Part shown: piece after piece, positions 1-16,862 of the stretch
Position numbering within the stretch: position 1 is the stretch's first letter
Layout: every line of letters starts with the position of its first letter
IMG/VR virus record: IMGVR_UViG_3300023178_004374
DNA length: 20,000 nt
Strand: one strand, 5' to 3'
DNA from: an uncultured virus (IMG/VR IMGVR_UViG_3300023178_004374)
Taxonomy: Duplodnaviria; Heunggongvirae; Uroviricota; Caudoviricetes
The notes under the pieces: generated by a model
Database searches by the model: none
The model's input: only the letters and a program-made list of their open reading frames with translations
What the model was told of the DNA's origin: nothing
Position numbers and translations under genes: made by a program

Positions 1-792
1 TTCATGGCCATTATCGTCCATCCATTTTGCTACATCTTCGTAATCAACACCTTTGTCTTCAATATAATGCAATGGATTGGTTGTTTTTTCAATTAAATTG
101 AAAAATTCCATATGACTAATACCACCATGCATTTCTTGTAATACGTATTGATAAAAAGGTTCTTCAGATGGAGTCTTACTATTTGTTAAAGTTTCAAACA
201 TTGGATCTGCTTCATTGGTTGCAGCAGAACGAATAGTGTCTTCAATTTTTTCATATTGTCTTTTATAAAAATTAAATCTTGGAATTGAGTTACCTTTCCA
301 GAAAAAATAGAAAGTTCTATCTCTAATTTGACTTAGTCCATGTAAAATAGATTTAGTTTTATAAATGCTAAAGGTATAACCATTTTTTCTTGCTAGTTGA
401 CGAAGTTGTGCTACAACCTTTTCACCCATTTTGCTTGCTAATCTTGGAGCATTTTCTCCCCAAAAAACTGTTGGCTGAATTGATTCCAAAACATATTCTG
501 CTGACTTGACCATCCAGTCATTAGTGCTGCTATCAGCATTGCTGCTAGGAGAAAGGGAAGACAAGCCAGCGCAAGGGCAAACAGTGTTGACAACATCGAC
601 ACTATGAGGCGCAAGACCACCCACGTCAAGCTTATAATAAGGAACGCTATTGTCGTAATAATTAAGAAGTTGGCTGTCATTTGCTTCAAAGTCCGTATAT
701 GATAATATATATTCAGGTTTTGTCCCAAATACATTTTGCATTGCTATTGTTTCTCCACCAATGAGTGGAACTATACTTGCATACTTAACCAT
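1..792 (-). CDS. Divergent DNA (cytosine-5)-methyltransferase-like protein, runs off the window (3' partial)
   Basis: Not in the ORF track. Manual translation from ATG at 792, open to position 1: MVKYASIVPLIGGETIAMQNVFG...VDVVNTVCPCAGLSSLS...QPTVFWGENAPRLAS...HGLSQIRDRTFYFFW. This shows motif IV (PC), motif VI (ENA ~ ENV) and motif VIII (QxRxR) in the correct order; motif I is degenerate (VPLIGG vs FxGxGG). Start overlaps the end of the upstream UDP-glucose dehydrogenase. Confidence 0.8.
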   Translation of the reverse strand, partial: MVKYASIVPLIGGETIAMQNVFGTKPEYILSYTDFEANDSQLLNYYDNSVPYYKLDVGGLAPHSVDVVNTVCPCAGLSSLSPSSNADSSTNDWMVKSAEYVLESIQPTVFWGENAPRLASKMGEKVVAQLRQLARKNGYTFSIYKTKSILHGLSQIRDRTFYFFWKGNSIPRFNFYKRQYEKIEDTIRSAATNEADPMFETLTNSKTPSEEPFYQYVLQEMHGGISHMEFFNLIEKTTNPLHYIEDKGVDYEDVAKWMDDNGHE

Positions 793-1603
793 AATTTACA
801 TTCTGAGCCTTTTCTCTTTCATCTTTATCATAACAATTACGATACTTATTATTCTCTTCGATAACTTTTTCTAAAACGGAAAAAGATTTCGCAAAGTTCG
901 CAAACGCTGCTGTGTCTTTTGGGAAGCAAGCGCCACCAAAGCCACGCTTGCCATCAAACCCAGGCACAGTAATATGAGACCTACCAATTCTTGGATCTGT
1001 TCCAATTGCGTTACTGATAACACCATAATTTCCTCCAAAGTTTTCTATGACATCATAAAATTGATTCATCCATAAGACCTTTGATGCAAGGAAACAATTA
1101 ATTCCATACTTTACAAAGCTTGCATCAGTGGACGTCATGTGATATACAGGACACGGCTTGCATAAGCTAAAGTCTTTATAGATTTGTTCTAATCTTTCTG
1201 TAGCTTCTGGATTTCCTCCAAAAATATGCATAGATGGATTTACAAAATCTTCACATGCATTTTTTTCAGTTAAAAATTCAGGATTGTAAACTACTCTAGC
1301 ACCTCCACCGCGTCTTGAAAATTTTTCAATTATGTCAGGTGTCACAGTTGATTTAATAACAATGATTCCTGATCTACGTAGCAAAAGTTTTGTTACAGTA
1401 TCAACTACAATAGAACAATCGATCGATCCATCTTTACCCATAGGTGTAGGAACACAAACAAACGTTATATCTTCACTTAATTCTACATCATCTAAAGTAG
1501 TATTATAGAGAGGATCGATGATAGTTTTAGTAATAGCTTTATTTGAAAAGCCATAATCCACAGCTTTGCCAACAAACCCGTGGCCAACAATTGTCATTCT
1601 CAT
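785..1603 (-). CDS. ugd: UDP-glucose/GDP-mannose dehydrogenase family protein (short form lacking most of the C-terminal domain)
   Basis: Rossmann GHGFVG, FVCVPTP, IKSTV, YNPEFL, KYGINCFLASK, DPRIG and catalytic GFGGACFPKD motifs; 272 aa. Confidence 0.9.
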   Translation of the reverse strand: MRMTIVGHGFVGKAVDYGFSNKAITKTIIDPLYNTTLDDVELSEDITFVCVPTPMGKDGSIDCSIVVDTVTKLLLRRSGIIVIKSTVTPDIIEKFSRRGGGARVVYNPEFLTEKNACEDFVNPSMHIFGGNPEATERLEQIYKDFSLCKPCPVYHMTSTDASFVKYGINCFLASKVLWMNQFYDVIENFGGNYGVISNAIGTDPRIGRSHITVPGFDGKRGFGGACFPKDTAAFANFAKSFSVLEKVIEENNKYRNCYDKDEREKAQNVNYG

Positions 1604-2562
1604 TAATTAACTCCATAATAACTTTTGTACCATGTAATGAATTCTTTAACACCATCTGTTATAGAAGTTTTAGGATTATAACCTAACGCTTGTAATTTAG
1701 TAGTGTCAGACCACGTCTCAGGGACATCTGCAGGATGTTTAGGCGCTAATTCTCTTTCTGCTTTCCGATCAAGATTTTTTTCAATTTCATCTACAAAATC
1801 TAATAGATTAACCTGTTGGCCATAACCAATATTATAGATTTCATGCCATTCTTGATTGGTTTCATTCATAGCTTTATCTACTACTAATTCTATACCATCT
1901 ACGATGTCTTGTACATAGGTAAAATCACGTTTCATATCACCATAATTATAAAGTGTGATTGGTTCACCTTTAACGATTCCATCTGTGAATTTAAATAGAG
2001 CCATGTCTGGTCGACCATATGGTCCATACACTGTAAAGAAGCGAAGGCCTGCAGAACGTGAAATTTTAGAATGAGAAAACTGACATTCATTTACTCGTTT
2101 AGACCAACCATATGGATTGTTTTGTAAATCTGGTCGATCATGTTCATTCCAAGGTAAAGGCTGTCCATGCATAACGCAGGAGCTTGATGCATATACAACT
2201 GGTATGTTTAGTTCTTCACATACTTCTATAATACGTTGTGTTCCAGTTATGTTAGTATCAATATATGGTTGCGGTTCTTCAAGAGCGTGTCTTGGATTTG
2301 CATATGCAGCTAAGTGTAATACAATATCTACATCTTTCATAAATGACGTATTGTCATTAATTACTTTAAAGTCTTCAATGTCCCCTCGCATAATAGGAAC
2401 ATTATATTCTTCTTGTAAAATGTTAGCACGATCTTCTTTTAATTGTGGATCGTAATAATCATTAAAATTGTCTAAGCCACATACTTCCCAATTATTTTTT
2501 GCGAAGTGCCTGGCTGCGTGAAAGCCGATCATGCCGGCAATACCTGTTACTAAAATTTTCAT
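1603..2562 (-). CDS. NAD-dependent nucleotide-sugar epimerase, UDP-glucuronate 4-epimerase-like
   Basis: TGIAGMIG, DNFNDYYDPQLKEDR, YASSS, YGWSK (YxxxK), GLRFFTVYGPYGRPDMALFKF, RDFTYVQDIV: the pattern of the GAE/WcaG/CapI subfamily of extended SDRs. Confidence 0.88.
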   Translation of the reverse strand: MKILVTGIAGMIGFHAARHFAKNNWEVCGLDNFNDYYDPQLKEDRANILQEEYNVPIMRGDIEDFKVINDNTSFMKDVDIVLHLAAYANPRHALEEPQPYIDTNITGTQRIIEVCEELNIPVVYASSSCVMHGQPLPWNEHDRPDLQNNPYGWSKRVNECQFSHSKISRSAGLRFFTVYGPYGRPDMALFKFTDGIVKGEPITLYNYGDMKRDFTYVQDIVDGIELVVDKAMNETNQEWHEIYNIGYGQQVNLLDFVDEIEKNLDRKAERELAPKHPADVPETWSDTTKLQALGYNPKTSITDGVKEFITWYKSYYGVN

Positions 2563-3806
2563 ACGAAAAATTCCTCTAGTCCTTGTGGTTGGTTTTCAGT
2601 TGTGTTAATAGCAAGATCAATAATTTCATTTACAACATCCTCACCATTGGAGTGTTGTTTCCAAAATTCAAATGCCATTTCTCTCCAATCATCTCTCATA
2701 GACGGATCGTTTTTGAGTTTTGTCATCATTTCTTGACACTCTTTAAAATTAGTATAGTCAACACCAAGAGTGCCAGAATTTTTGCATTGACTAATAGGAT
2801 CACCCTGTACAGGGTGTATTACGTTATCACAGAAATGTTTATGGAATAATGGTACAGTGCCAGATGCAATACATTCAGCATGACAATTTTCAATATTGTT
2901 ACCATATGTTTCTGCTTTTAAATGATAAAGATCTGAACCAAATGCTGAACGTGCCATTCTCATCATTGCCTCATTATTTATGTATTGAGGATATAGATAA
3001 GCACCTTTATTGGTTTCTTCTTTACCATACAAGTCAGGTGTAAACTTGACTTCATTAAATTTCTTTTCTGGTCTAAAATAATTTTCAACCATGCGGCGAT
3101 CAACAGGATTATCTTCTTTATTATCACGATATAAAACAAGAGGATATTGTATAGAAGCTTCTAAACCTTCAAGGACAGTTATAAATCCTTGCTCCATCAA
3201 AGCATCTTGATGGAAATCAATCATTAAACTAGGACCTTTCCACATTGCAGTACGACCAATCCAACGAACCATATTATGCTGTTGTTCTTCAATTGGTCGC
3301 CAATACTTTTGACGGTGATCCTCATAATCAAAACCCAAACCCATTTTAGTTAATGGAGTTTGGATTCTATTTTTCTTCATAAATTTTGAGAAATCATTTT
3401 CAAGACTGTGAGTCATAATGACATCAACATTTTCGCAAACTTCTTTTAGATTAGCATTACGTGCTATTGAAGCAGCTTTATGGTCTACATTAATAAACGC
3501 TTTACGTATTTTTAGTCTCTGTAAAAATGGTACAAAATTATCTTGACAATCTTGTGGATGAGACTTAGAAGGTACTGAATAAATGATTGCTAAATCATAC
3601 ATTGAATTAATAACATCTGCAGTTAATTCCCACTGCGTACCCATTACAAATTCTTTTTGATCAATTTCTAATCCTTTAGCTCGTCCCCATTTTTTATCAA
3701 TTGCAGAATAGATATCTGCTCCTGTTACTTTTTGCATTTGAATAGCACATTGTGTTACACCGCAGCCTTCAGTACCACGACCAAGGATAATAGCAATTCT
3801 AGTCAT
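2559..3806 (-). CDS. agt: DNA alpha-glycosyltransferase (T4 alpha-glucosyltransferase homologue, GT-B)
   Basis: Colinear with T4 AGT as recalled: RGTEGCGVT (RGLEGCGVT), YSVP, DH...RNANL, HS..NDF, RWIGRTAMWKG (RWIGRTTTWKG), DFH, EGLE, YINNEAMMRMARSAFG (YINSEMLERMSKSGFG), GTVPLF, RE.AFEF..QH; similar length (415 aa). Confidence 0.9.
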   Translation of the reverse strand: MTRIAIILGRGTEGCGVTQCAIQMQKVTGADIYSAIDKKWGRAKGLEIDQKEFVMGTQWELTADVINSMYDLAIIYSVPSKSHPQDCQDNFVPFLQRLKIRKAFINVDHKAASIARNANLKEVCENVDVIMTHSLENDFSKFMKKNRIQTPLTKMGLGFDYEDHRQKYWRPIEEQQHNMVRWIGRTAMWKGPSLMIDFHQDALMEQGFITVLEGLEASIQYPLVLYRDNKEDNPVDRRMVENYFRPEKKFNEVKFTPDLYGKEETNKGAYLYPQYINNEAMMRMARSAFGSDLYHLKAETYGNNIENCHAECIASGTVPLFHKHFCDNVIHPVQGDPISQCKNSGTLGVDYTNFKECQEMMTKLKNDPSMRDDWREMAFEFWKQHSNGEDVVNEIIDLAINTTENQPQGLEEFFV

Positions 3807-3842
3807 TTATGATTCCTTAAATTTACAAGTGTGTGATATACG

Positions 3843-3850
3843 TATTTATG
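3843..3850 (-). promoter_or_regulatory. Possible T4-type late promoter variant CATAAATA
   Basis: One mismatch to TATAAATA, intergenic, about 37 nt upstream of the agt start; an AAGGAA RBS-like element precedes the ATG. Confidence 0.4.
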
Positions 3851-3863
3851 ATTATTAAATATA

Positions 3864-3893
3864 ATTCTAACATATTTTTACACAAATGTAAAC
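3864..3893 (-). promoter_or_regulatory. T4-early/sigma70-type promoter for the agt operon
   Basis: Minus strand GTTTACA-17 nt-TAGAAT with TG extended -10 and upstream A-tract, in one of the few intergenic gaps. Confidence 0.75.
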
Positions 3894-3901
3894 TATTTTT
3901 T

Positions 3902-4216
3902 TTATTTTGGTGAAGAACAATGCATGTGACATTCTTTACATGCATTTTCAGGATGTTCATATAATTCTTTGTGAAAGTTATACCACTGTTCTGATTCTAT
4001 AATATCAAGAATGTCATCATTTCGATCAACTCTTAATTCATCATCCCATAAATTTTTAGTATTATTTTTATAGTTGTGATACTTATCTAAATAACAACAA
4101 GGAAGAAGATGCCCTGAAGCAGTAAAGGCTAAACCATTTCCTGCACCAGGAAATCCATCATTGGGTTTATAATCGCCTTCCATTGTTACGCTCCAACATT
4201 GAGGATAAAGTTTCAT
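3902..4216 (-). CDS. Stand-alone SPASM/twitch Fe-S domain protein
   Basis: C...G.LLPCC...CKECHMHC cysteine pattern; ATGA-coupled to the upstream radical SAM gene. Confidence 0.7.
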   Translation of the reverse strand: MKLYPQCWSVTMEGDYKPNDGFPGAGNGLAFTASGHLLPCCYLDKYHNYKNNTKNLWDDELRVDRNDDILDIIESEQWYNFHKELYEHPENACKECHMHCSSPK

Positions 4217-4938
4217 ACTCTTTTTTTCTCACCAAATAGTTTTTTAGAAATTAAATTTATATTTGTAGGAGGAGCAACTGGACTGTCAGGATTAAACCTA
4301 CCTGAAGTAAGTAATATTAATTCTACATCTATTTCATCTGCCATTTCTTTTGCTTTCATAATATCATGTTCATTATATGCAAATGGAATGTATTGCCAAA
4401 TGACTCTCCACCTTTCCCATTCAGGTTCTCTTCTTTGCCTTGATGCTACATATTTCATTGCCTCAAAAGCTGAATGAAAATCTTGGCCAACTCTATGAAT
4501 AGCTGCTTTTTCATCTATGCCATCTATACCAAAGTGCCATTCTATTCTAGTTGGAAGTTGCCAAGCTACATCTACAAGTTCATCCCAATACTCTTGTTTT
4601 TTTCCAGATCCATTTGTATGAATTTCGATTTTTTCTAAATATGTTACATCATCTATTGATGACAATAATGAAATAAAATCTTTGTGATAGATAGGATCAG
4701 AAATCTGACCACAAAATGAAATGCCACTTCTTACGAAGTTAGTTAACTTTCTCAATTCTTTTGATTTTAAATCACCATAAGATTTCCTATAATCAGAAAT
4801 CATAGGTTGTCCTTGAACTTCAGATTGGCGTGAACAAAACTGACATTGAAGTAAACACCTATGAGTAGTGTCTACATTTATTACTGTCCATCTGTATCCC
4901 TCTATAATTTTGGAATACATTTCAGCAAATGAATTCAT
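4213..4938 (-). CDS. Radical SAM protein
   Basis: CLLQCQFC (CxxxCxxC), FCGQISDP (GGEP-equivalent), HTNGS, FGIDG. Confidence 0.85.
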   Translation of the reverse strand: MNSFAEMYSKIIEGYRWTVINVDTTHRCLLQCQFCSRQSEVQGQPMISDYRKSYGDLKSKELRKLTNFVRSGISFCGQISDPIYHKDFISLLSSIDDVTYLEKIEIHTNGSGKKQEYWDELVDVAWQLPTRIEWHFGIDGIDEKAAIHRVGQDFHSAFEAMKYVASRQRREPEWERWRVIWQYIPFAYNEHDIMKAKEMADEIDVELILLTSGRFNPDSPVAPPTNINLISKKLFGEKKRV

Positions 4939-5356
4939 ACTCTACGCCTGCTTCATCAAATAATTGTTTAGTCATATTCCATGACTCGACCCACTGTTCT
5001 TTTATTTTTTGTCTTGGCATAACAACTCTTTTTATTCCTACCTGAATAACACCAAGAGCACAATGGTTGCAAACAGGCAAGCCATGAACAAATAAGGTAG
5101 CTCCATCTAATGATACTCCGTTGTATGTTGCGTTATAAATTACATTCTGTTCAGCATGTACTATGTACTTGTATTTAGTTTCTCTCACTGCATATCTATC
5201 AAGAGAATCTGTTATTCCTCTAGGAAAACCATTATATCCTTGAGATAAAACTTGACCTTTAGATCCTACAGCAATAGCACCGATTTGAGAAGATGGATCT
5301 TTAGACCACTTAGATACTTCTTCTGCTAATTTTAAATATCGTATATCCCATTTCAT
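4922..5356 (-). CDS. cd: dCMP deaminase
   Basis: SKDPS.QIGA, GYNGFPRG, HAEQN and PVCNHC zinc motifs. Confidence 0.92.
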   Translation of the reverse strand: MKWDIRYLKLAEEVSKWSKDPSSQIGAIAVGSKGQVLSQGYNGFPRGITDSLDRYAVRETKYKYIVHAEQNVIYNATYNGVSLDGATLFVHGLPVCNHCALGVIQVGIKRVVMPRQKIKEQWVESWNMTKQLFDEAGVEYEFIC

Positions 5357-5601
5357 ACTTCTTGCTCTTCACCAAAAGATTTTTTTAATATTTCTTTTAT
5401 TACTTTTTCTTGCAAACAGTTTACTGCTAATATTGGCATGTCTTTTCCATATTCTTCTTTTAATTTTCCAAGATACGCGATTTGATCTAATGGATCTCTA
5501 ATACTAACCATACATTCTTCTCTAGTTTCAAACCTAGGCTTTTCAAAAATATAAACATCGCCTTGCAATGTTCCAAATATTACTACTATTAACCAGTTCA
5601 T
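5353..5601 (-). CDS. Hypothetical phage protein with hydrophobic N-terminus
   Basis: ORF track 5353..5613; ATG at 5601 preferred because it forms an ATGA overlap with the upstream small ORF; stop overlaps the dCMP deaminase start. Confidence 0.6.
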   Translation of the reverse strand: MNWLIVVIFGTLQGDVYIFEKPRFETREECMVSIRDPLDQIAYLGKLKEEYGKDMPILAVNCLQEKVIKEILKKSFGEEQEV

Positions 5602-5747
5602 TTTACATACCACTTCATCCAGATAGGTCCTATTCTAATAGAATAATACCTGGTAGTTTCATTATTACATCTAACTTCTTTAGGTGTAATTTTAAACTTC
5701 CAAGTACTAATATGCCATATCCAAGTAATGTAAAATTTTATTAACAT
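5598..5747 (-). CDS. Small hypothetical protein (49 aa, Trp-rich)
   Basis: Manual translation MLIKFYITWIWHISTWKFKITPKEVRCNNETTRYYSIRIGPIWMKWYVK; fills the gap exactly, abutting the upstream stop and overlapping the downstream start. Confidence 0.5.
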   Translation of the reverse strand: MLIKFYITWIWHISTWKFKITPKEVRCNNETTRYYSIRIGPIWMKWYVK

Positions 5748-6305
5748 CTACCATTTAACGATATAATAATTTTCATTTAGTTGTTTAATAATAGGATTAT
5801 AAGGATACAACAATTTTTGTAATTCTTCTTTAGTGTATTTATGGTATTCTTCAGCAATGCCATCATCATACCATTCTGCATAAAATATAAAAAAAGCATG
5901 CTGAGCATTAAAATTTCTATAGTGCTCCAACAACTTAGGAAGACCTATGTAATTAGGTACACCAAATAAACTAACAAGAACATCACAGCTATCATCTATA
6001 TTTTCATTACAATCAGCTAAAACAAAGTTATAATCTTTAAACTTTTCTTTAGCATTATTTAACATGCCTTGAGATAAATCATATCCTGTAAAATTTTCTG
6101 GTCCAGGCCATTGTAAGATAGGAATGTCTTGTCCGGATCCAACACCTAATGAAATAATTTTTCCCTCTTCTATATTCTCCATCCAAAACTCATGAGCATC
6201 TTTCTCATCTTGCATATAGATGTTGTTTTCCCATCCGCCATCAACATATTTTTCTTCATAATATGTCTTAGCAGCATGATTATATTTTTCAACTAAGTCT
6301 ACCAT
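5748..6305 (-). CDS. Class I SAM-dependent methyltransferase
   Basis: ISLGVGSG (motif I), TGYDLSQGML (motif II), CDVLVSLFG. Confidence 0.8.
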   Translation of the reverse strand: MVDLVEKYNHAAKTYYEEKYVDGGWENNIYMQDEKDAHEFWMENIEEGKIISLGVGSGQDIPILQWPGPENFTGYDLSQGMLNNAKEKFKDYNFVLADCNENIDDSCDVLVSLFGVPNYIGLPKLLEHYRNFNAQHAFFIFYAEWYDDGIAEEYHKYTKEELQKLLYPYNPIIKQLNENYYIVKW

Positions 6306-6982
6306 CCTATATCTCCATACATATTTACTGCAATTTTAGCACACTCATCAAGAGATAGACCTTTTTCATTATCTAATTGATCATATGCATATTCTAATTC
6401 TCTACACCCCATACAATAACCACAAGGTTCAGTGGCGTGAGTGTTACATGAAATAGTTGTGTCATAAATATAGTCAAATCCATTCCGTCTTCCTAAATCA
6501 ATTACATGATATTTTTCAATATGTTCAAACGGATTCTTCCAAAATTTATCATTAGTTAGCCATGGGCGTTTTGCCATTCCCTTTTGGTCTACATTCCAAC
6601 GAGGAAACCATTGAGGATGTGGAGGCAAAATATTTCCACAATAAAGTTCTTCAATATCTTCATCATTTCTTACATCTTGAAACGCAAGCATAAGTCTAGC
6701 AAAATGATTTTTCATTTCCCAATTATGATACTTTTCTCCGATGATTTCTAATTCTAAATCAACGTCAAATTTTTCAAGGATTTCTTCAATTAAAGGTTTC
6801 TTAGGATCCCATGAAGTCTGTACATTAAAAATTCTAATTTCTGTATCAGGAAAATTGTCCCATAATAATTTAAAAAGTGTAGTGCTGTCAGCGCCTGATG
6901 ACATTAACACACCAATCTTTTTAGCTGGATTTAGTTTTACAATTCTTTCATCCCATTCAGGACCACATCTAAATTCTTTCAT
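6299..6982 (-). CDS. QueC-like PP-loop ATPase
   Basis: VLMSSGADS PP-loop; C-terminal TISC...PCGYCMGCRE zinc site as in QueC. Confidence 0.75.
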   Translation of the reverse strand: MKEFRCGPEWDERIVKLNPAKKIGVLMSSGADSTTLFKLLWDNFPDTEIRIFNVQTSWDPKKPLIEEILEKFDVDLELEIIGEKYHNWEMKNHFARLMLAFQDVRNDEDIEELYCGNILPPHPQWFPRWNVDQKGMAKRPWLTNDKFWKNPFEHIEKYHVIDLGRRNGFDYIYDTTISCNTHATEPCGYCMGCRELEYAYDQLDNEKGLSLDECAKIAVNMYGDIGW

Positions 6983-6991
6983 TCCATATCC

Positions 6992-7690
6992 TTATTTAAC
7001 TAAATGGAAGTGACGTTCATACACGTGTAAATTCATGACTTGCCACATTAACATACCTTTTTCAATAGGACCATGTTCACCATAAATTTCTGCTAATGAA
7101 TTCCATTCTCTTACAAATTTATCCATTAAGTATTGTGCCCAAGCATAATCATTTTTATATCCATAAACAACATCATTAGAACGCATTTGAGATACCATTG
7201 AAAGTATGCCATCACGAATATAAAATGTTTGTGCATTAGTGCAAATAAAATCAGATTTACCGCCTTCATTATATTCACACCATATTGATGGACGGTTATA
7301 AATCATTTGTGCACGACGTGAATCTGGATTAGCTTGTAATTCATCAAAGGCATGTTGGAATTGATAATGATATTTTTCAGAAAAAAGTAAGTGACCATAA
7401 TTAGAATTTATTTCACCATGTTTATTTGCTGCGTATTGCCATGCTTGAGGAGGTGCATCTGAATCAACACCATTTATATCATAAATGTTTGTTGAACCTG
7501 ATTCATACCAAGCTATTTCTTTGTTAATATATTCTTGACTAGGTGTACCAAAAATAGCAGGTTCAGTGCATAAAAAATTAGCACCAATTAACTCAATAGT
7601 TTTTTGACCTGTTTTATCTATAGTAAAGGCTTCATCATTTAGTTCATCAATAAAAAATTGACGTATGTCACTAACCGTTTGGAGAATCAT
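6992..7690 (-). CDS. dCMP hydroxymethyltransferase (T4 gp42-like, thymidylate synthase superfamily)
   Basis: Colinear with T4 gp42 as recalled: DKTG.KTIE.IGA.F, EYI.KE..WY, GEINSNYG, NPDSRR, RPS, SDFICTN (catalytic Cys), MRSNDVV.G..NDYAW (cytosine-specifying Asp), LHVY.RHF. Confidence 0.92.
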   Translation of the reverse strand: MILQTVSDIRQFFIDELNDEAFTIDKTGQKTIELIGANFLCTEPAIFGTPSQEYINKEIAWYESGSTNIYDINGVDSDAPPQAWQYAANKHGEINSNYGHLLFSEKYHYQFQHAFDELQANPDSRRAQMIYNRPSIWCEYNEGGKSDFICTNAQTFYIRDGILSMVSQMRSNDVVYGYKNDYAWAQYLMDKFVREWNSLAEIYGEHGPIEKGMLMWQVMNLHVYERHFHLVK

Positions 7691-8108
7691 TTTTTTCTAG
7701 CTCTCTTTCAAATACTCTTTTACGCAAATCTGATGACGAAAATCTGTGGTCTCGTTTATTAAAATATAAAGAAATATTTCTACGTCTACATTCATCTTTG
7801 CCAGTAAAATCTTTATCTTTATATTCATCACCAAGTATACGTACATCAATTGGATACATGTTTATTATATCAAGTAAATCGGATTCTGTACAATAAACAA
7901 TGATTTCATCTACATATTTTACTGCAGAAAGTTGTTTGTATCTTTCTACTACACTTTGAATAGGTGAGTTTTTTTCTTCACGATCCCAAGACGGATCTAC
8001 TTGCAATCCACAAATAAGCCAATCGCATTGTTCTTTTGCTTCTCTTAGCATTGCGATATGACCAGCATGAAGCAAGTCAAACGTACTACATGTAAATCCT
8101 ACTTTCAT
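7671..8108 (-). CDS. TagD-like (glycerol-3-phosphate-type) cytidylyltransferase
   Basis: FDLLHAGH (HxGH), VKYVDEI, G.EY, FSSS. Confidence 0.85.
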   Translation of the reverse strand: MKVGFTCSTFDLLHAGHIAMLREAKEQCDWLICGLQVDPSWDREEKNSPIQSVVERYKQLSAVKYVDEIIVYCTESDLLDIINMYPIDVRILGDEYKDKDFTGKDECRRRNISLYFNKRDHRFSSSDLRKRVFERELEKNDSPNG

Positions 8109-8496: not shown

Positions 8497-8579
8497 TTAT
8501 TCATCTCCGTTACTGCAATAATATAAAATCCAATAATTATAATTGCTAGGATACTAATTGCTGTAAATACTTCACCCAT
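8493..8579 (-). CDS. Tiny single-pass membrane peptide (28 aa)
   Basis: Manual translation MGEVFTAISILAIIIIGFYIIAVTEMNK; overlaps the pckA stop and forms an ATGA overlap with the cupin start. Confidence 0.5.
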   Translation of the reverse strand: MGEVFTAISILAIIIIGFYIIAVTEMNK

Positions 8580-9762
8580 TTATCATCCTTTCTAAGATTT
8601 CTAAGACTTCTTCGCTTCTATCTTCGGCTCCTCTAATTAGAGAATTTGTTACACAATTACGAGTAAATTCTAATGGAAATCTTTTACCTTTTTTATCCAT
8701 ACCAGTATTAATTAAATAAACATTAACATCATGTTCTTCTATTTTTTCCATTAACATATCGCTATATACATTTACATTTCTAGGCATAAAAGGTGATCCA
8801 TAACATGGTGAAAATATTTTTTTAATTTCTTCAACACCTGCTTCAGTGCCTGGCATTTGACTTGTATATCCAGTTTCAAAGAACCGTCTTACAGTTTCTC
8901 CAGAAATTTTACTTACTGGAGGAAAACTACCTGTAGCATCCATTGTTAGAAAAAATATATTATTAGGATGTTTGAATTGTGTATCATTTATATATGCATT
9001 TTCTACATACTTTAAAGGATAACTTAATCTAGCATTAGCAGCACCAGGATTTTCTATTACTAATGTTTCAGCTTTTTTTGCAGCTTCCACAGCATTAAAA
9101 ATAGTTGGATGTGTTTCAGGTGACAAACCTTCTGATTTAGCATAGCAGCCTTCTTCAACTTTTGCGATGCCTTCTTCATTCCAAGATACTTCATCATCTG
9201 AAATTAAACCAAATTGAGGATCACTACTTAATGTTGTTTTACCTGTTCCACTTAATCCAAACATAAGATTAGTTTTATCCTTAAAAGTAAAAGCACTACA
9301 ATGCATTGGTAAAACATTTTCGTCTGGTAATTCAAATCCTAAAATACCAAACACTCCTTTTTTAATTTCACCTAGAAAAGTAGTTCCACCAATTAACATA
9401 ATTTTTTCATCTAAATGTACAGCAATTGTAGGTGGACAATTAATTTCAGTGTTGTGAATAATTTTCCATTCTGCATAATGTTCAGTTGGATCATCTACTA
9501 CTGAAAACATGTTTCTTACAAATTGAGCATGTCTATCATCATTAGTTAAGACAGCAAAACCGCGACGAGAAGTATAAAAATGCAAGTAATGTTTATAATT
9601 GTATTCATTTAAATCTTCATAAAATTCCCAAAAATATTTTTCTTCGCCTATCTTATTATATTTTGGTCTTGATAAATCTAGTTTTCTAGCTAAGTTTCCA
9701 TAAAATATTTTATTCTCAGGAGATCTGCCAGTTGGGTTAGTTATTATTTCTATATTAGCCAT
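8572..9762 (-). CDS. pckA: ATP-dependent phosphoenolpyruvate carboxykinase (compact form)
   Basis: TGRSP, GEIKKG, PMHCSA, FGLSGTGKTTLS (P-loop), LISDDE, EGCYAK, NAR.SYP, FPPVSK, GYTS, FSPCYG.PF, YLINTG. Confidence 0.9.
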   Translation of the reverse strand: MANIEIITNPTGRSPENKIFYGNLARKLDLSRPKYNKIGEEKYFWEFYEDLNEYNYKHYLHFYTSRRGFAVLTNDDRHAQFVRNMFSVVDDPTEHYAEWKIIHNTEINCPPTIAVHLDEKIMLIGGTTFLGEIKKGVFGILGFELPDENVLPMHCSAFTFKDKTNLMFGLSGTGKTTLSSDPQFGLISDDEVSWNEEGIAKVEEGCYAKSEGLSPETHPTIFNAVEAAKKAETLVIENPGAANARLSYPLKYVENAYINDTQFKHPNNIFFLTMDATGSFPPVSKISGETVRRFFETGYTSQMPGTEAGVEEIKKIFSPCYGSPFMPRNVNVYSDMLMEKIEEHDVNVYLINTGMDKKGKRFPLEFTRNCVTNSLIRGAEDRSEEVLEILERMING

Positions 9763-10427
9763 TTTTCATTCCACCTTTTTTCATCTTCTGGTGTATTAAT
9801 TTCTATTCCATTAAATTCAGTATGCAGTATACCTATGTCCCAACCTGTTTTTAACCAGCGCAATTGCTCTAGTTGTTCTATTCTTTCTTCTTCTATTATA
9901 CCATACTTGCTATAGAATTGTAAAGGATTTCTTTTATATCCATAAATTCCTAAATGCCAATCGCCATAGCCTGCCATTCCTCTTCCGAACCAAAGGGCTT
10001 TATCTCCACCTCTTACTACTTTTACAGAGTTAGGATCATTTCGCATTTTTTCTGGCATATCGGTGAAAAGAGTAGTGATAGGGTAATGCTTTAAATGCCA
10101 TATTACTTTATTAATCATATGCTTATTCACATCAGGCATATCACCTTGAACGTTTATGTACTGATCATATTCTGGTATTTTATCGAGCGCTCCGGCACAT
10201 CTTTCTGTACCATTATTATATTCTGTAGTATCTAATCGACAATTATTGTCATTAAATAATGAAGCAATTCTATAGTCATCAGTAAGTACATATGTATCTA
10301 AACCTGTATCAGCACAAGTCTCATACACTCTTTCAATCATAGTCATTTCACCAAGATTAACTAATGGCTTACCAGGGTATCTACTTGACTCATATCTCGC
10401 TGGAATAAGAATAGCGGTGGATTTCAT
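9750..10427 (-). CDS. kdsB: 3-deoxy-manno-octulosonate cytidylyltransferase (CMP-KDO synthetase)
   Basis: IPARYESSRYPGKPL, GTER, INVQGD.P, DPNSVKVV, HLGIYGY, EQLEQLRWL, INTPED. Confidence 0.93.
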   Translation of the reverse strand: MKSTAILIPARYESSRYPGKPLVNLGEMTMIERVYETCADTGLDTYVLTDDYRIASLFNDNNCRLDTTEYNNGTERCAGALDKIPEYDQYINVQGDMPDVNKHMINKVIWHLKHYPITTLFTDMPEKMRNDPNSVKVVRGGDKALWFGRGMAGYGDWHLGIYGYKRNPLQFYSKYGIIEEERIEQLEQLRWLKTGWDIGILHTEFNGIEINTPEDEKRWNEKWLI

Positions 10428-11175
10428 CTACAACTCTTTCAAAATCATCTAATCTAAGCATACTTTCCGAATCACTGGGTGCGGATTCAGGCATAGGGTG
10501 GACTTCGATAAAGAAGGAAGTGACCCCCAAAGCAGCCCCACAACGAGCCAACCCAGGCACGTGAATAGGAGCACCGCCCGAGCAATGTCCAATTCCGCCG
10601 GGCTTTTGGACAGAGTGAGTAACATCGAGAACAATATCGCAGTCATAATTATTAAGCATATAGTCAACACCAGTGAAATCGACAACAAGGTTATTATATC
10701 CAAAACTTGTACCTCTTTCAGTTATCCATACTTCTTTAGCACCTTGTGTTTTACTTAAAATTCCTGTAACATCCCAAGGCGCTAGAAATTGACCTTTTTT
10801 TATATTTACTATTTTCTCTGTTCTACAAGCTTCAACAATTAAATCTGTTTGCCTACAGAGAAATGCTGGAATCTGTAGTACGTCTACTAGATTTCCACTA
10901 CCTTGATACCCCAATTGTCTAACTTGTTCTACACTATGAACATCAGTAAGAATTTTAAGACCAGGTATTTCGGTTTTTAAATCACGGAAATGATGTAGAG
11001 TCATTGGCATACCAAGACCACGTTTTCCAGTCAAGCTTGTTCTATTTGCTTTATCAAAACTAGCTTTAAAATAATATTCAGCTTCGTACTTATCACAAAC
11101 ATCTTTACAATGTAAAGCGATTTCTAAACTTTGTTCAAAGGTTTCATGTTGACATGGTCCGGCGATAATTCTCAT
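10390..11175 (-). CDS. kdsA: KDO-8-phosphate synthase (probably metal-dependent class)
   Basis: IAGPC, FKASFDKANRTS, LQIPAFLCRQTDL, NIKKGQFLAP, ERGTSFGYNNLVVD, DVTHSVQ.PGG, EVHP.P..A.SD. Confidence 0.95.
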   Translation of the reverse strand: MRIIAGPCQHETFEQSLEIALHCKDVCDKYEAEYYFKASFDKANRTSLTGKRGLGMPMTLHHFRDLKTEIPGLKILTDVHSVEQVRQLGYQGSGNLVDVLQIPAFLCRQTDLIVEACRTEKIVNIKKGQFLAPWDVTGILSKTQGAKEVWITERGTSFGYNNLVVDFTGVDYMLNNYDCDIVLDVTHSVQKPGGIGHCSGGAPIHVPGLARCGAALGVTSFFIEVHPMPESAPSDSESMLRLDDFERVVDEIHRYSYSSEI

Positions 11176-11357: not shown

Positions 11358-11920
11358 TGTGGTACTAAGCTCCACCATCCTGTTAAAATTGCTTTAGGTT
11401 CTTGAGCTATTACTCCTCTATGAGTATGTGTAAAACCTGGTGGCCAAATTATTGTCCTACCTTTGACAGCATCAACTTTTAAATCTTGATATAAAAATTC
11501 AGTGCCACCATCTTTAACAGTATTTAAATATGTCATAAAAACTAAATGTCGAGTTCCATCTGTTCTATGATGAGCTAATTCATGATGCCAAGTTTTAAAA
11601 CCTCCGCCTGGAGGATAGCATTGAAAATTATATTCTTGTATAATTCTAAATTGATCAACGTTATTAGCATGTTCATATTCTTTTAAATATTCATTTAAAA
11701 CTTTTTGTAACGAGGTTTGATACCTCATAATCAACTCACCTGGAAGATTATTAGATGTTAAATCTTGTGAATCTTTTACATCAGTATTTACAACAACCTT
11801 TCCATTATTTCCAACCATACCAGATTTAACAAAAACTTGATTATTATCCCAATAATCAAAATAGTCTTGTATCAATTCATCACTAATGGAATTGTCGTAT
11901 ATACCAATAAAATTTTTCAA
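11354..11920 (-). CDS. 2OG-Fe(II) oxygenase
   Basis: WHHE (HxD/E), LVFMTYLN, GGTEF, IWPPGFTHTHRG, ILTGW; typical of marine T4-like phage oxygenases. Confidence 0.88.
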   Translation of the reverse strand: MKNFIGIYDNSISDELIQDYFDYWDNNQVFVKSGMVGNNGKVVVNTDVKDSQDLTSNNLPGELIMRYQTSLQKVLNEYLKEYEHANNVDQFRIIQEYNFQCYPPGGGFKTWHHELAHHRTDGTRHLVFMTYLNTVKDGGTEFLYQDLKVDAVKGRTIIWPPGFTHTHRGVIAQEPKAILTGWWSLVPQ

Positions 11921-12327
11921 AGTCTACCATCCTTACGTAGCTGAGCTCTAATTTTTGTAGCGCTAATATCGTGTATGTCTTTTCCTAAATCATGTTCAGT
12001 GAATGTATAACCTACACCTCTCCCATAACTAATGTCTACAATATTAGGAACTTTCATAATAATGTATTTCTCGTTATATGCAAAACCTTCTTTATGTAAT
12101 GCGACTTGAATATTTTGTACAACCTGACTATAGTCAAAAGGATTATCATCTTGTGCTACAGTTCTTCCACCACCAGCATCAGATCCAATAATACCACCAA
12201 CATCTCGAATCATAATAGCAACTTGACCAGTTTCTGCTAAAGCTCTTTTAAATAATTCTGTATGCCCAGCATGCCAAGGCTGCCATCGACCTAGCATTTG
12301 CGTTGTTGGTTTTTTATGATCAAACAC
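11917..12327 (-). CDS. HxGH nucleotidyltransferase (cytidylyltransferase-like)
   Basis: GRWQPWHAGH, DNPF, ISATKIR. Confidence 0.8.
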   Translation of the reverse strand: MFDHKKPTTQMLGRWQPWHAGHTELFKRALAETGQVAIMIRDVGGIIGSDAGGGRTVAQDDNPFDYSQVVQNIQVALHKEGFAYNEKYIIMKVPNIVDISYGRGVGYTFTEHDLGKDIHDISATKIRAQLRKDGRL

Positions 12328-12742
12328 CCGGAAAATCCTCTCTTAATACTTTTGCGAAGTTAATTATTTCTTCATCAGACATAAAAGACTTTACATGATA
12401 ATCAACTTCTGTAGGTCTTTCAAATATTTTATTAGTATTATCAAACCTACCCTCTTCTATTGTGTCCATCCATATTGTAATATCAGCTATAAACTGTTTA
12501 CGTGTTTCTCCAGTAGGACAAACAAAATCACAAATAACAGTACGACCACGAGATCCTTCAAATAATGCAAGAGTATTCATTCTTTCTGCTTGTCTATTTC
12601 TGCCAGATGGAGTAAAGTCCCAATCATTGGCTTGCTCTCTAATCTTATCAGCATTATACCAAGCACAATTTAAATGAATTTGTAACCTTTTAGCTAGGTG
12701 TGTTTTCCCCGCTCCCGGCAGTCCCATTATCAGGATTCTCAT
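12320..12742 (-). CDS. Adenylylsulfate-kinase-like P-loop kinase
   Basis: GLPGAGKT, NADKIR, DF...GR..Q..RM, DFVCP, FERP. Confidence 0.75.
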   Translation of the reverse strand: MRILIMGLPGAGKTHLAKRLQIHLNCAWYNADKIREQANDWDFTPSGRNRQAERMNTLALFEGSRGRTVICDFVCPTGETRKQFIADITIWMDTIEEGRFDNTNKIFERPTEVDYHVKSFMSDEEIINFAKVLREDFPGV

Positions 12743-12899
12743 TTTTTCTAAAACTCCATGTTCCGTCGTTATGTTCTTCCCAAATTAATTCAGTACCAGC
12801 ATCCCATCCCATTTGGTTAAGAATATCTGATGGTAAATTAACTACTAATTCTCCATTTGAATCTTCGCCAATATCAGCTGTCCACGTTTTCTGATTCAT
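12690..12899 (-). CDS. AbrB/MazE/SpoVT-like small DNA-binding protein
   Basis: GELVVNLPSDILNQMGWDAGTELIW swapped-hairpin pattern. Confidence 0.65.
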   Translation of the reverse strand: MNQKTWTADIGEDSNGELVVNLPSDILNQMGWDAGTELIWEEHNDGTWSFRKNENPDNGTAGSGENTPS

Positions 12900-13236
12900 C
12901 TGTTTTCCTTTTAGGTCTATTTAAAAAATCATGCTCAGGATTCTGACCATCTATGTTTCCATTCATATATGCAATAAAGAATGAAGCATAGTTAATTATA
13001 TCTATGCATGAATCTTCAAGGGATTCGAAATTAGGATTATAATCTCTATCCAATTCCATTGCTTCAAGCACAGATTGAATACGTAATACTTTAGCTTGCA
13101 TGGTATCTAGAATAGTAGCACAACCACGAGGATAGTACATTGCTTGACGTACTCGTGAATTAGGATTTTGGTAATCATTACCTTTTTTATTTTGAATTTC
13201 AGCTGCACGCTGTAATACTTTAATTGATTCTTTCAA
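12874..13236 (-). CDS. Nucleotide-modification-associated domain 1 (DUF1599-like, all-alpha NTP-PPase/MazG fold)
   Basis: KKGNDY, K..R, ESLEDSCIDIINYA motifs. Confidence 0.7.
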   Translation of the reverse strand: MKESIKVLQRAAEIQNKKGNDYQNPNSRVRQAMYYPRGCATILDTMQAKVLRIQSVLEAMELDRDYNPNFESLEDSCIDIINYASFFIAYMNGNIDGQNPEHDFLNRPKRKTDESENVDS

Positions 13237-15940: not shown

Positions 15941-16353
15941 CAGTCAATAATGCGTGGTAGATCACCAACATTCCCCTCGTGAGTTGGACCTTTCCAACCG
16001 CCAGGTTTTAATAAATCAGGTAAACCAAAACGATTAGGCCGACCAGGTTTTACACCAGGCTTTTTTGCCATATTAGCTTCATACACTCTATCCCATGCTT
16101 CATTAGCATCTACTCCCATTACATCAAGAGTACCGATAGCAAATACACACATATCAATTAGGCCATCAACAACTTCTTCTGCATCAGAATTATTAATAGC
16201 TGACAATGTTTCTTGATATTCTTCACCAATCATTAGCATACGAAACATAATATATTTCCGCATAAGATCTTTATCTTCTTTATTTTTATCAAACCATTCA
16301 CGTACTCCAAATTTATTGTGCATCATGTAAATGTCATTTGCCCAATCACTCAT
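15940..16353 (-). CDS. MazG-like (PRA-PH family) NTP pyrophosphohydrolase
   Basis: EEYQE...EEVVDGLID acidic motif, V..ANM.K, LLKP.GW..P. Confidence 0.8.
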   Translation of the reverse strand: MSDWANDIYMMHNKFGVREWFDKNKEDKDLMRKYIMFRMLMIGEEYQETLSAINNSDAEEVVDGLIDMCVFAIGTLDVMGVDANEAWDRVYEANMAKKPGVKPGRPNRFGLPDLLKPGGWKGPTHEGNVGDLPRIID

Positions 16354-16862
16354 AATTTAAACTCCTTAATTTTTTCAAATGATCCTCTAATCGTAAACAT
16401 ATAATGATCATAGTCAGGTTGACTAAACTTATATGTGCCACATGGGTGTGGAATTGTCATATTTAAAAGTACTCCTAATTTTTCTTTTGGAACATCCCAT
16501 TTTTTTTCGTATTTTTCTAATACATTATTTACGCAAATATCATAGTGAAATCCACATACATAAATTCTATTTACGTTGTTTATCCAGTGATGAATATATC
16601 TATCATCATCAATTACATCACTTAATTTGTATATTACTTTATCATTTTTTCTGTCTATAGATTCCATTAATCCATATTTTTTATATTCTGGATATCCGGT
16701 ATAATGAAACACTTCACTTACATTTCTTATATAAGGTAACATTGTATTTATGTAATTACCAAATGTATGTGCTTCTGTTTCAATAAGTGCGTGACTTCTA
16801 ACATCTTCATCAGGCCAAGTTTGCCATGCATCGACAATCACCACAACATTCTTGAAACGCAT
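16350..16862 (-). CDS. Isochorismatase/cysteine-hydrolase-like protein
   Basis: VVIVDAW and IYVCGFHYDICV (GxxxDxCV) motifs. Confidence 0.5.
   Translation of the reverse strand: MRFKNVVVIVDAWQTWPDEDVRSHALIETEAHTFGNYINTMLPYIRNVSEVFHYTGYPEYKKYGLMESIDRKNDKVIYKLSDVIDDDRYIHHWINNVNRIYVCGFHYDICVNNVLEKYEKKWDVPKEKLGVLLNMTIPHPCGTYKFSQPDYDHYMFTIRGSFEKIKEFKL

Follow-up and report, generated by a model that had tools for sequence, protein, structure and literature searches.

A putative uronic acid-glycosylated 5-hydroxymethylcytosine pathway in uncultured ocean phages related to T4

In the T-even system (T4 gp42, gp56, cd and the alpha-glucosyltransferase, alpha-GT or AGT), 5-hydroxymethylcytosine (hmC, also written 5hmC) is made before replication, and the AGT of T4 is an enzyme that uses UDP-sugars. 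Then, could a phage supply an enzyme of this family with a sugar other than glucose? Here, we analyse a 20-kb stretch of DNA from the uncultured virus IMGVR_UViG_3300023178_004374 (the whole stretch is called the window hereafter), in which an AGT homologue is followed by genes for an epimerase of the UDP-glucuronate (UDP-GlcA) 4-epimerase (GAE) type and for a protein like UDP-glucose dehydrogenase (UGDH). An earlier reading of the letters alone (the sequence-only reading) had proposed a uronic acid on the hmC of this phage. Based on the evidence below, it is very probable that the phage DNA carries glycosylated hmC, and we put the probability that the sugar is a hexuronate at roughly 0.55. 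The window has in common with the T-even system the pre-replicative hmC predicted from gp42, a dCMP deaminase and a full-length AGT-family transferase. However, the AGT gene of the window is joined to the epimerase-type and UGDH-like genes, whereas the a-gt gene of the T-even control has no sugar genes nearby. Orthologues of gp56 and gp1 were not identified in the window phage, where MazG-type proteins are the sole dCTPase candidates, and beta-GT was not searched for.

Recently, phage gene clusters were described in which a glycosyltransferase (GT) is encoded beside an epimerase on which it strictly depends (bioRxiv 10.1101/2023.12.21.572611). For example, the epimerase and GT of contig 57 yielded a cytosine modified by a hexuronic acid (HexA), with 433 amu, as did GT91 alone, while other phage GT-B enzymes yielded 5hmC modified by 3-deoxy-D-manno-octulosonic acid (Kdo) and by heptose. 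GT57 has a GT-A, JGT-like fold, and 5hmC is derived there from a methyltransferase plus TET; an AGT-family enzyme is not mentioned in the part of the preprint text that was available. The window shares with this subclass II a DNA GT beside an epimerase, and hexuronic acid on 5hmC has been demonstrated there. The difference is that 5hmC is post-replicative in subclass II (C5-methyltransferase plus TET) and the GT is of GT-A type, whereas the gp42 route and a GT-B enzyme of the AGT family are found here, together with a UGDH-like gene of its own; Tet_JBP was not found in the two lineage genomes searched (G003 and G004). The two are set apart by the available description, not by sequence. The sequence-only reading knew of no characterised uronate system, which holds for the version with gp42, AGT family and GAE-type epimerase but not for the product class, since HexA-5hmC has already been made. 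Uronate-hmC in this phage would be a natural variant of a chemistry that other viral genes have already yielded in the laboratory. No second report of uronic acid on hmC was found in the literature search.

Two further systems are comparable in part. Bacillus phage SP-15 is a natural case of DNA with a glucuronic acid derivative and has a UDP-glucose dehydrogenase gene in its modification cluster, and its UGDH is 30.8% identical to the short enzyme of the window. However, the SP-15 DNA contains glucosylated, phosphoglucuronated dihydroxypentyl-uracil, in which the base is thymine, the uronate is phosphodiester-linked and the transferases are unrelated. The pelagimyophage 'group C' (mSystems 2020, PMC7029224) fits by gene content alone, having two 'thymidylate synthases', a dCMP deaminase, rfaE and a UDP-glucose dehydrogenase, but the available part of that paper reads thymidylate synthesis and lipopolysaccharide (LPS), not hmC glycosylation.

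The features on which the argument depends are as follows.
6992..7690, minus strand: gp42-type dCMP hydroxymethylase, 232 amino acids (aa), phmmer E 2.5e-62 to the T4 enzyme 1b49
4922..5356, minus strand: dCMP deaminase (dCD), PF00383 E 2.9e-18, phrog_174
12874..13236, minus strand: MazG-type NTP pyrophosphohydrolase, candidate dCTPase, phrog_18404/1485
3864..3892, minus strand: promoter-like site TTTACA-N17-TAGAAT, TG-extended, in the 95-nt gap before the AGT gene
2559..3806, minus strand: T4 AGT homologue, 415 aa, PF11440 107.5 bits (cut-off 25)
1603..2562, minus strand: UDP-glucuronate 4-epimerase-type short-chain dehydrogenase/reductase (SDR), 319 aa, named from PDB matches, 4-nt overlap with the AGT stop
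785..1603, minus strand: UGDH-like NAD dehydrogenase, 272 aa, without the UDP-binding domain (PF03721 and PF00984 only), 1-nt overlap with the epimerase gene

The identities of these putative enzymes, and the conservation of their catalytic residues, are shown by homology. An IMG/VR scan with the AGT protein gave 80 related loci (72-100% identity), onto which all the window proteins were mapped.

Residues 4-231 of the gp42 homologue align to residues 6-225 of the solved T4 dCMP hydroxymethylase (phmmer), whereas the best thymidylate synthase match has an E value of 1.4e-4. The catalytic Cys150 lies in 'DFICTN' and the cytosine-specifying Asp181 in 'KNDYAW', which corresponds to 'RNNYAW' in the D179N mutant entry 6l18; both residues are retained in all 46 distinct orthologues, as the sequence-only reading had it for the window. 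The protein is therefore gp42-type with intact catalytic residues, and dCMP hydroxymethylation is its predicted activity. Since the genome also encodes ThyX, the gp42 homologue is not needed as a thymidylate synthase. The MazG-type gene is mostly upstream of gp42 in the related loci, and tblastn located its relatives in T4-like Serratia and Cronobacter phages (54.7% identity) as well as in Xp12-like phages, the latter with the annotation nucleotide pyrophosphohydrolase.

The AGT homologue is a full-length member of its family, with residues 3-397 aligned to 3-397 of the solved T4 AGT (E 3.8e-40), so its assignment in the sequence-only reading stands. The family is GT-B, and 189 of the 415 positions are invariant among 55 distinct clade members. 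Beside the motifs shared with T4 AGT, basic residues are invariant in the clade, namely K110 (Ser in T4), K81/H83 and H322/H324, and the clade also has Arg-rich insertions; at the level of sequence, these features are hints of an anionic donor. From the presence of gp42 in the same block, we infer that the acceptor is hmC in duplex DNA. The C-terminal tail PQGLE-FF (2559-2600, minus strand) is invariant or nearly so in the clade and resembles clamp-binding peptides, and T4 alpha-GT and gp45 are reportedly the subject of an earlier paper. Complex prediction paired the C-terminal 75 residues of AGT with the gp45 clamp encoded in the same complete genome; the scores of 0.48, 0.08 and 0.15 (mark 0.32) speak neither for nor against binding. 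As for the promoter that had been assigned to the AGT operon, the site is present, and of 51 distinct regions preceding AGT in the relatives, 22, the most diverged among them, contain the motif TTTACA-17-TA(G/T)AAT. However, promoter-like sites are not enriched in this AT-rich DNA (56 found versus 47.6 +/- 5.7 expected).

The epimerase is an extended SDR (GxxGxxG, YxxxK). Its closest PDB entries are 5u4q (2.6e-70), which bears the name of a dehydratase, the UGAepi group 6zl6/6zld/6zll (5.5e-42), which is the Bacillus cereus UDP-GlcA 4-epimerase (BcUGAepi), and MoeE5, likewise a UDP-GlcA 4-epimerase. The PDB identity of 6ZLD and 6ZLL as UGAepi complexes with UDP-GlcA and UDP-galacturonate (UDP-GalA) was confirmed. 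The Thr/Ser network that holds the UDP-GlcA carboxylate reads S-T-S-S in BcUGAepi and S-S-S-C in the window enzyme, where an invariant Cys takes the place of one Ser. YxxxK, S-S-S-C, T177 and R184 in FFTVYGPxGRPDMA are retained in 55/55 distinct orthologues. By counting on the alignment, R184 corresponds to BcUGAepi Arg185, which holds the UDP-GalA carboxylate according to the available part of the source (PMC12338863). No NCBIfam model matched at its cut-off, the top one being galE (119 versus 262 bits), and a UGAepi-specific model was absent among the matches. The protein is grouped with characterised UDP-GlcA 4-epimerases, whose activity is predicted for it.

The third gene encodes a protein with intact GxGxxG and an intact cysteine in GGACFPKD. 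Full-length UDP-glucose 6-dehydrogenases have about 380-460 aa, and the matches to solved chains (393-494 aa) end near residue 295-317. Because the C-terminal UDP-sugar-binding domain is absent from the 272-aa protein, it is called 'UGDH-like' here, not UGDH. Accordingly, the dehydrogenase claim of the sequence-only reading keeps its NAD-binding and central domains and its catalytic Cys and loses the UDP-binding domain. The AF2 model has a pLDDT of 80 with a poorly defined Cys loop, and Foldseek matched it to UGDH and GDP-mannose dehydrogenase chains (377-461 aa) with TMq 0.60-0.71 and TMt 0.37-0.50. Among 58 complete orthologues (identity down to 45%), 56 have 270-284 aa, one has 290 aa and that of Phage C48C1 has 319 aa; GGAC[FL]PKD occurs in 58/58 and the GxGxxG pattern in 57/58. 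Such conservation suggests that the short form is a selected architecture and not a broken gene. The forms in the sister lineage, to which C48C1 belongs, have 318-330 aa. Short UGDH-like proteins occur widely among phages, namely in Campylobacter CP220-like phages, in Microbacterium phages, where the gene adjoins a glycosyltransferase gene, in Listeria phages and in the C48C1 lineage.

The three genes overlap in series, by 4 nt and then by 1 nt, as had been read in the window. Linkage of agt, epimerase and ugd in relatives had been named beforehand as a test, for which loci with a complete AGT gene and at least 400 nt downstream (n=72) were used for the epimerase, and those with at least 2 kb downstream (n=60) for the UGDH-like gene. 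The epimerase gene follows AGT in 72/72 loci, and stop and start touch or overlap in 69/72. Reverse-strand NUMOD3 homing-endonuclease-like ORFs (open reading frames) lie between the two genes in the three exceptions (L019:2440-3105, L055:6262-6777 and L056); they have a GIY-YIG-like N-terminus and are the sole interruptions of this junction. The UGDH-like gene is directly after the epimerase in 53/60 loci, beside gp42 in one, and was not seen in six. A loss of the gene in some loci was considered at first but had to be softened: of five contigs without it after the epimerase, one has it elsewhere and the other four are fragments of 2-11%, and in L036, L272 and L314 it is located directly upstream of gp42. 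L272 pairs this upstream gene with a short SDR after AGT, which could give another sugar. Among the other junctions, that from the UGDH-like gene to the C5-cytosine DNA methyltransferase-like (C5MT-like) gene is kept in 49/54 loci, from the epimerase to the UGDH-like gene in 56/65, from gp42 to the dCD directly after it in 38/59, and from dCD to AGT in 3/67. The AGT-to-epimerase junction is thus the best kept of the block, and these counts indicate that AGT moves together with the epimerase genes downstream of a variable slot, and not with gp42.

More distant AGTs were explored as well. A full scan of 1.84 billion representatives found 198 AGT-family clusters only, and the neighbourhoods of two out-clade representatives provided 24 loci whose AGT is 44-52% identical to that of the window. 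An epimerase-family SDR is beside or near AGT in 22 of them. In 17 loci (L266-L279, L282-L284) a short SDR of 249-261 aa, with 26-32% identity to the window epimerase, is downstream of AGT, directly so in 16; in L282 an MT-A70 gene (L282:6269-6811, adenine methyltransferase-like) comes between. In the 16 loci long enough to show it, the slot ahead of the C5MT-like gene is taken by the short SDR. In five others (L261, L262, L265, L280, L281), a GalE-like epimerase is directly upstream of AGT, with E 2.5e-44 to 2.2e-56 to the GalE model but below its cut-off. As a control (n=1), the a-gt gene of an enterobacterial Tevenvirinae phage is flanked by terminators of its own, and no sugar gene was found within 4 kb of it. 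The repeated occurrence of different SDRs on either side of AGT argues that the neighbouring SDR supplies the AGT donor. Such pairing is hard to explain by inherited synteny, and fits what experiments showed for other phage DNA GTs.

The following pathway can be proposed. The gp42 homologue would make 5-hydroxymethyl-dCMP before replication, the MazG-type pyrophosphatase would probably remove dCTP, and dCMP deaminase together with ThyX would cover dTMP synthesis; from these three functions comes the proposal that the phage builds hmC DNA. The AGT homologue would then glycosylate hmC in DNA, using a UDP-hexuronate as donor and not the UDP-glucose of the host. The donor would most likely be UDP-GalA, made from UDP-GlcA by the adjacent GAE-type epimerase, with UDP-GlcA provided either by the host or by the short UGDH-like enzyme. 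We prefer GalA to GlcA since it is the epimerase that always accompanies AGT, which the UGDH-like gene does not. The AGT, epimerase, UGDH-like and C5MT-like genes would form one unit behind the recurrent promoter. The DNA acceptor, the donor sugar and an anti-restriction role are what we infer from these genes.

Several observations weigh against a uronate donor. Phage C48C1, the nearest isolate by polymerase (54%) and UGDH (45%), has the order primase-epimerase-UGDH-UvsX, and its complete genome contains no AGT or gp42 in a Pfam search that matched three lineage contigs. Relatives of the C48C1 epimerase were examined at 80 IMG/VR loci, and the UGDH-like gene is present at 75 of these and the primase at 78; the epimerase-UGDH pair comes after the primase in 75/80, and AGT, gp42, dCD or the C5MT-like gene is found within 7 kb in 0/80. 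Since the pair is present without AGT in the sister lineage, it is older than the AGT association and has another use there, and AGT may have landed next to it by chance. Other possible users of the sugar exist too. The complete relative G004 (146.6 kb, terminal repeats, a T4-like myovirus) has a separate cluster with a second SDR, an FkbM methyltransferase and two GT25-like genes, as well as GT8-like ORFs; thus AGT is not the sole possible user, and the argument that it must use the sugar as the only glycosyltransferase was rejected. The truncated dehydrogenase gives 144 bits with TIGR03026, which fails the cut-off of 189.8, and its substrate is not assured. Two out-clade loci, L263 and L264, have no SDR near AGT in the available sequence. 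Gene overlap is weak evidence of coupling, since 22 of the 30 junctions in the window overlap by the gene coordinates, and it says little for AGT, epimerase and UGDH-like gene. In addition, the available part of the pelagimyophage paper assigns rfaE, the UDP-glucose dehydrogenase gene and the GT genes to modification of the O-chain of host LPS (mSystems 2020, PMC7029224). The AGT-free pair, the other glycosyltransferases, the published LPS reading and the frequent gene overlaps would suit plain glucosyl-hmC, or another neutral host hexose on hmC, with the epimerase and UGDH-like genes as an inherited module that makes UDP-GalA for a non-DNA glycan of the host envelope or the virion and happens to lie downstream of the site where the hmC/AGT block was inserted. 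We regard this as the chief alternative, although somewhat unlikely, because it leaves unexplained both the different SDRs upstream or downstream of distant AGTs and the best-kept AGT-to-epimerase junction, a neighbour that the enterobacterial a-gt does not have. The uronate donor of the sequence-only reading is therefore supported in part: the invariant epimerase linkage and the independent AGT-SDR pairings speak for it, the AGT-free pair of the sister lineage and the truncated UGDH against it.

The remaining alternatives are less probable still. AGT might use another activated sugar of the region, such as CMP-Kdo or NDP-heptose/mannose, or several sugars, since KdsA, KdsB, phosphoenolpyruvate carboxykinase (PEPCK), two RfaE-domain-II-like nucleotidyltransferases and a phosphomannomutase (PMM) are encoded in the window and Kdo- and heptose-5hmC are made by other phage GT-Bs in the preprint as far as available. 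The Kdo transferase family PF04413 had no match in three lineage contigs, and a search for a second DNA GT with PF00534 had none in the lineage contigs. This option is improbable, as the Kdo, heptose and PMM genes are patchy in the related loci whereas the epimerase is universal beside AGT, and the T4 enzyme works on a UDP-sugar. It is also conceivable, but very improbable, that AGT transfers glucose, which the short UGDH-like enzyme then oxidises to glucuronate on the DNA. A missing UDP-binding domain with a catalytic Cys motif that is conserved at 51-100% identity would fit such a role, but the same short form exists in the sister lineage without AGT and in other phages, a precedent is lacking, and the full-length UDP-GlcA epimerase would be left without a phage-made substrate. 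The least probable option, hardly to be expected, is that no DNA is modified, the gp42 homologue being a second thymidylate synthase, as the available part of the pelagimyophage paper lists it, and AGT acting on a non-DNA target. The gp42 homologue is far nearer to T4 dCMP hydroxymethylase than to thymidylate synthases, with Asp in place of the thymidylate synthase Asn in 46/46 orthologues. PF11440 is not known to have a non-DNA member.

Taken as a whole, the window is a block of minus-strand genes from the replication region of a T4-like phage (about 32% G+C), and in its full length it had no megablast match in the phage collection. In the order of transcription, it begins with DNA polymerase gp43, a phosphomannomutase-like HAD protein, the MazG-like protein and primase, followed by a sugar/nucleotide run of a cytidylyltransferase-cupin fusion, a small P-loop kinase, a nucleotidyltransferase, a 2-oxoglutarate oxygenase, KdsA, KdsB, PEPCK, a cupin and a small cytidylyltransferase. 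Then come the gp42 homologue, a QueC-like PP-loop protein, an S-adenosylmethionine (SAM) methyltransferase, an 86-aa ORF, dCMP deaminase, the radical SAM and SPASM ORFs, the 95-nt gap, the AGT homologue, the epimerase, the UGDH-like gene and the start of the C5MT-like gene. In a 100%-identical contig the block goes on with UvsX, gp41 helicase and ThyX. The features not yet located are listed below.
1..792, minus strand: divergent C5-cytosine DNA methyltransferase-like gene, N-terminal 264 aa of 396 (full copy L002:11015-12205)
3902-4216, minus strand: SPASM ORF, PF13186, in the variable slot between dCD and AGT
4213-4938, minus strand: radical SAM ORF, PF04055, in the same variable slot (3902..4938)
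5748-6305, minus strand: class I SAM methyltransferase, sub-lineage-specific, beside the QueC-like gene
6299-6982, minus strand: QueC-like PP-loop ATPase with an SSGADS PP-loop and a C-terminal Cys cluster, weak PF06508 match
7671..8108, minus strand: small cytidylyl/adenylyltransferase-like protein overlapping the gp42 start, PF01467 E 6.5e-15, RfaE domain II / TagD-like
8572-11175, minus strand: PEPCK (E 1e-93), KdsB-like CMP-Kdo synthetase and KdsA (E 2.7e-91) in a row, by homology
11917-12742 and 16350-16862, minus strand: small P-loop kinase, nucleotidyltransferase (weak NMN-adenylyltransferase matches) and an ORF with a weak isochorismatase-like lead, by homology

The full-length C5MT-like copy in L002 matches PF00145 with E 9.4e-18, and the PC, ENA, QxRxR and QNVP motifs are present. 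The gene is 3' of the UGDH-like gene in the related loci and 3' of the short SDR in the out-clade loci; it is puzzling in a phage that is expected to be without unmodified cytosine. The radical SAM core and the SPASM domain are two overlapping ORFs, not a single protein. They occur in some related loci only and have 30-48% identity apart from near-identical ones, and L017 and L018 each have two such pairs in the same slot (32-47% identity). Among the related loci mapped, the QueC-like and SAM methyltransferase genes are confined to L002-L006 and L072, and the QueC-like protein has no significant relative among solved structures. Based on these genes, the window sub-lineage could tailor hexuronosyl-hmC further, on the DNA or on the donor, by a QueC-like step that would activate and amidate the sugar carboxylate to a uronamide, and by SAM methyltransferase and radical-SAM/SPASM steps. 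The AGT family could have swapped donors via the neighbouring SDR (GalA, Gal and others), so that abundant ocean phages would have a range of different sugar-hmC bases; this extension is speculative and rather doubtful at present. The small cytidylyltransferase-like gene adjoins gp42 in 33 of the 40 loci carrying it. The PEPCK-KdsB-KdsA row is a putative phage-encoded route to phosphoenolpyruvate and CMP-Kdo, and the P-loop kinase, nucleotidyltransferase and isochorismatase-like ORF may be an NAD salvage set; relatives of the kinase are found in Xylella and Stenotrophomonas phages. For two unannotated ORFs, the ESM Atlas gave unnamed viral clusters or a weak isochorismatase lead only.

Some observations on the relatives should also be recorded. 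G004 (L086-L093) encodes isocitrate lyase, rubrerythrin, peroxiredoxin, a PstS-like protein and PhoH, with an FAD-dependent oxidoreductase beside the polymerase. Since it is without photosystem genes, it would seem to infect a marine heterotroph and not to be a cyanophage, although its nearest isolate, C48C1, is classed in Kyanoviridae. In C48C1 itself, three genes annotated as 'hypothetical' are in a row (L180:584-4031, record 49583-53030): a Tet/JBP dioxygenase (E 3.3e-17), a 344-aa protein and a UDP-galactopyranose mutase (E 6e-70 to 3hdq). The row looks like a putative module for J-base-like thymine hydroxylation and galactofuranose. The DNA methyltransferase of C48C1 is of the N6-adenine type, and the C48C1-like genomes G005 and G006 are without TET. 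A literature search by name found no paper on Phage C48C1.

If the hexuronate reading is true, very abundant uncultured ocean myoviruses, whose lineage has contigs up to about 150 kb and hundreds of protein clusters in marine metagenomes, would carry an anionic sugar on every cytosine. This would be the first natural hexuronosyl-hmC, a base so far known from E. coli reconstitutions only, and the T4 alpha-GT family would not be restricted to glucose. Such DNA would resist many library-preparation and cloning enzymes, which bears on the recovery of these phages in viromes, and the enzymes would be possible tools for 5hmC labelling. Finally, the 'second thymidylate synthase' and the 'LPS genes' of pelagimyophage-like phages would then be a DNA hypermodification pathway.

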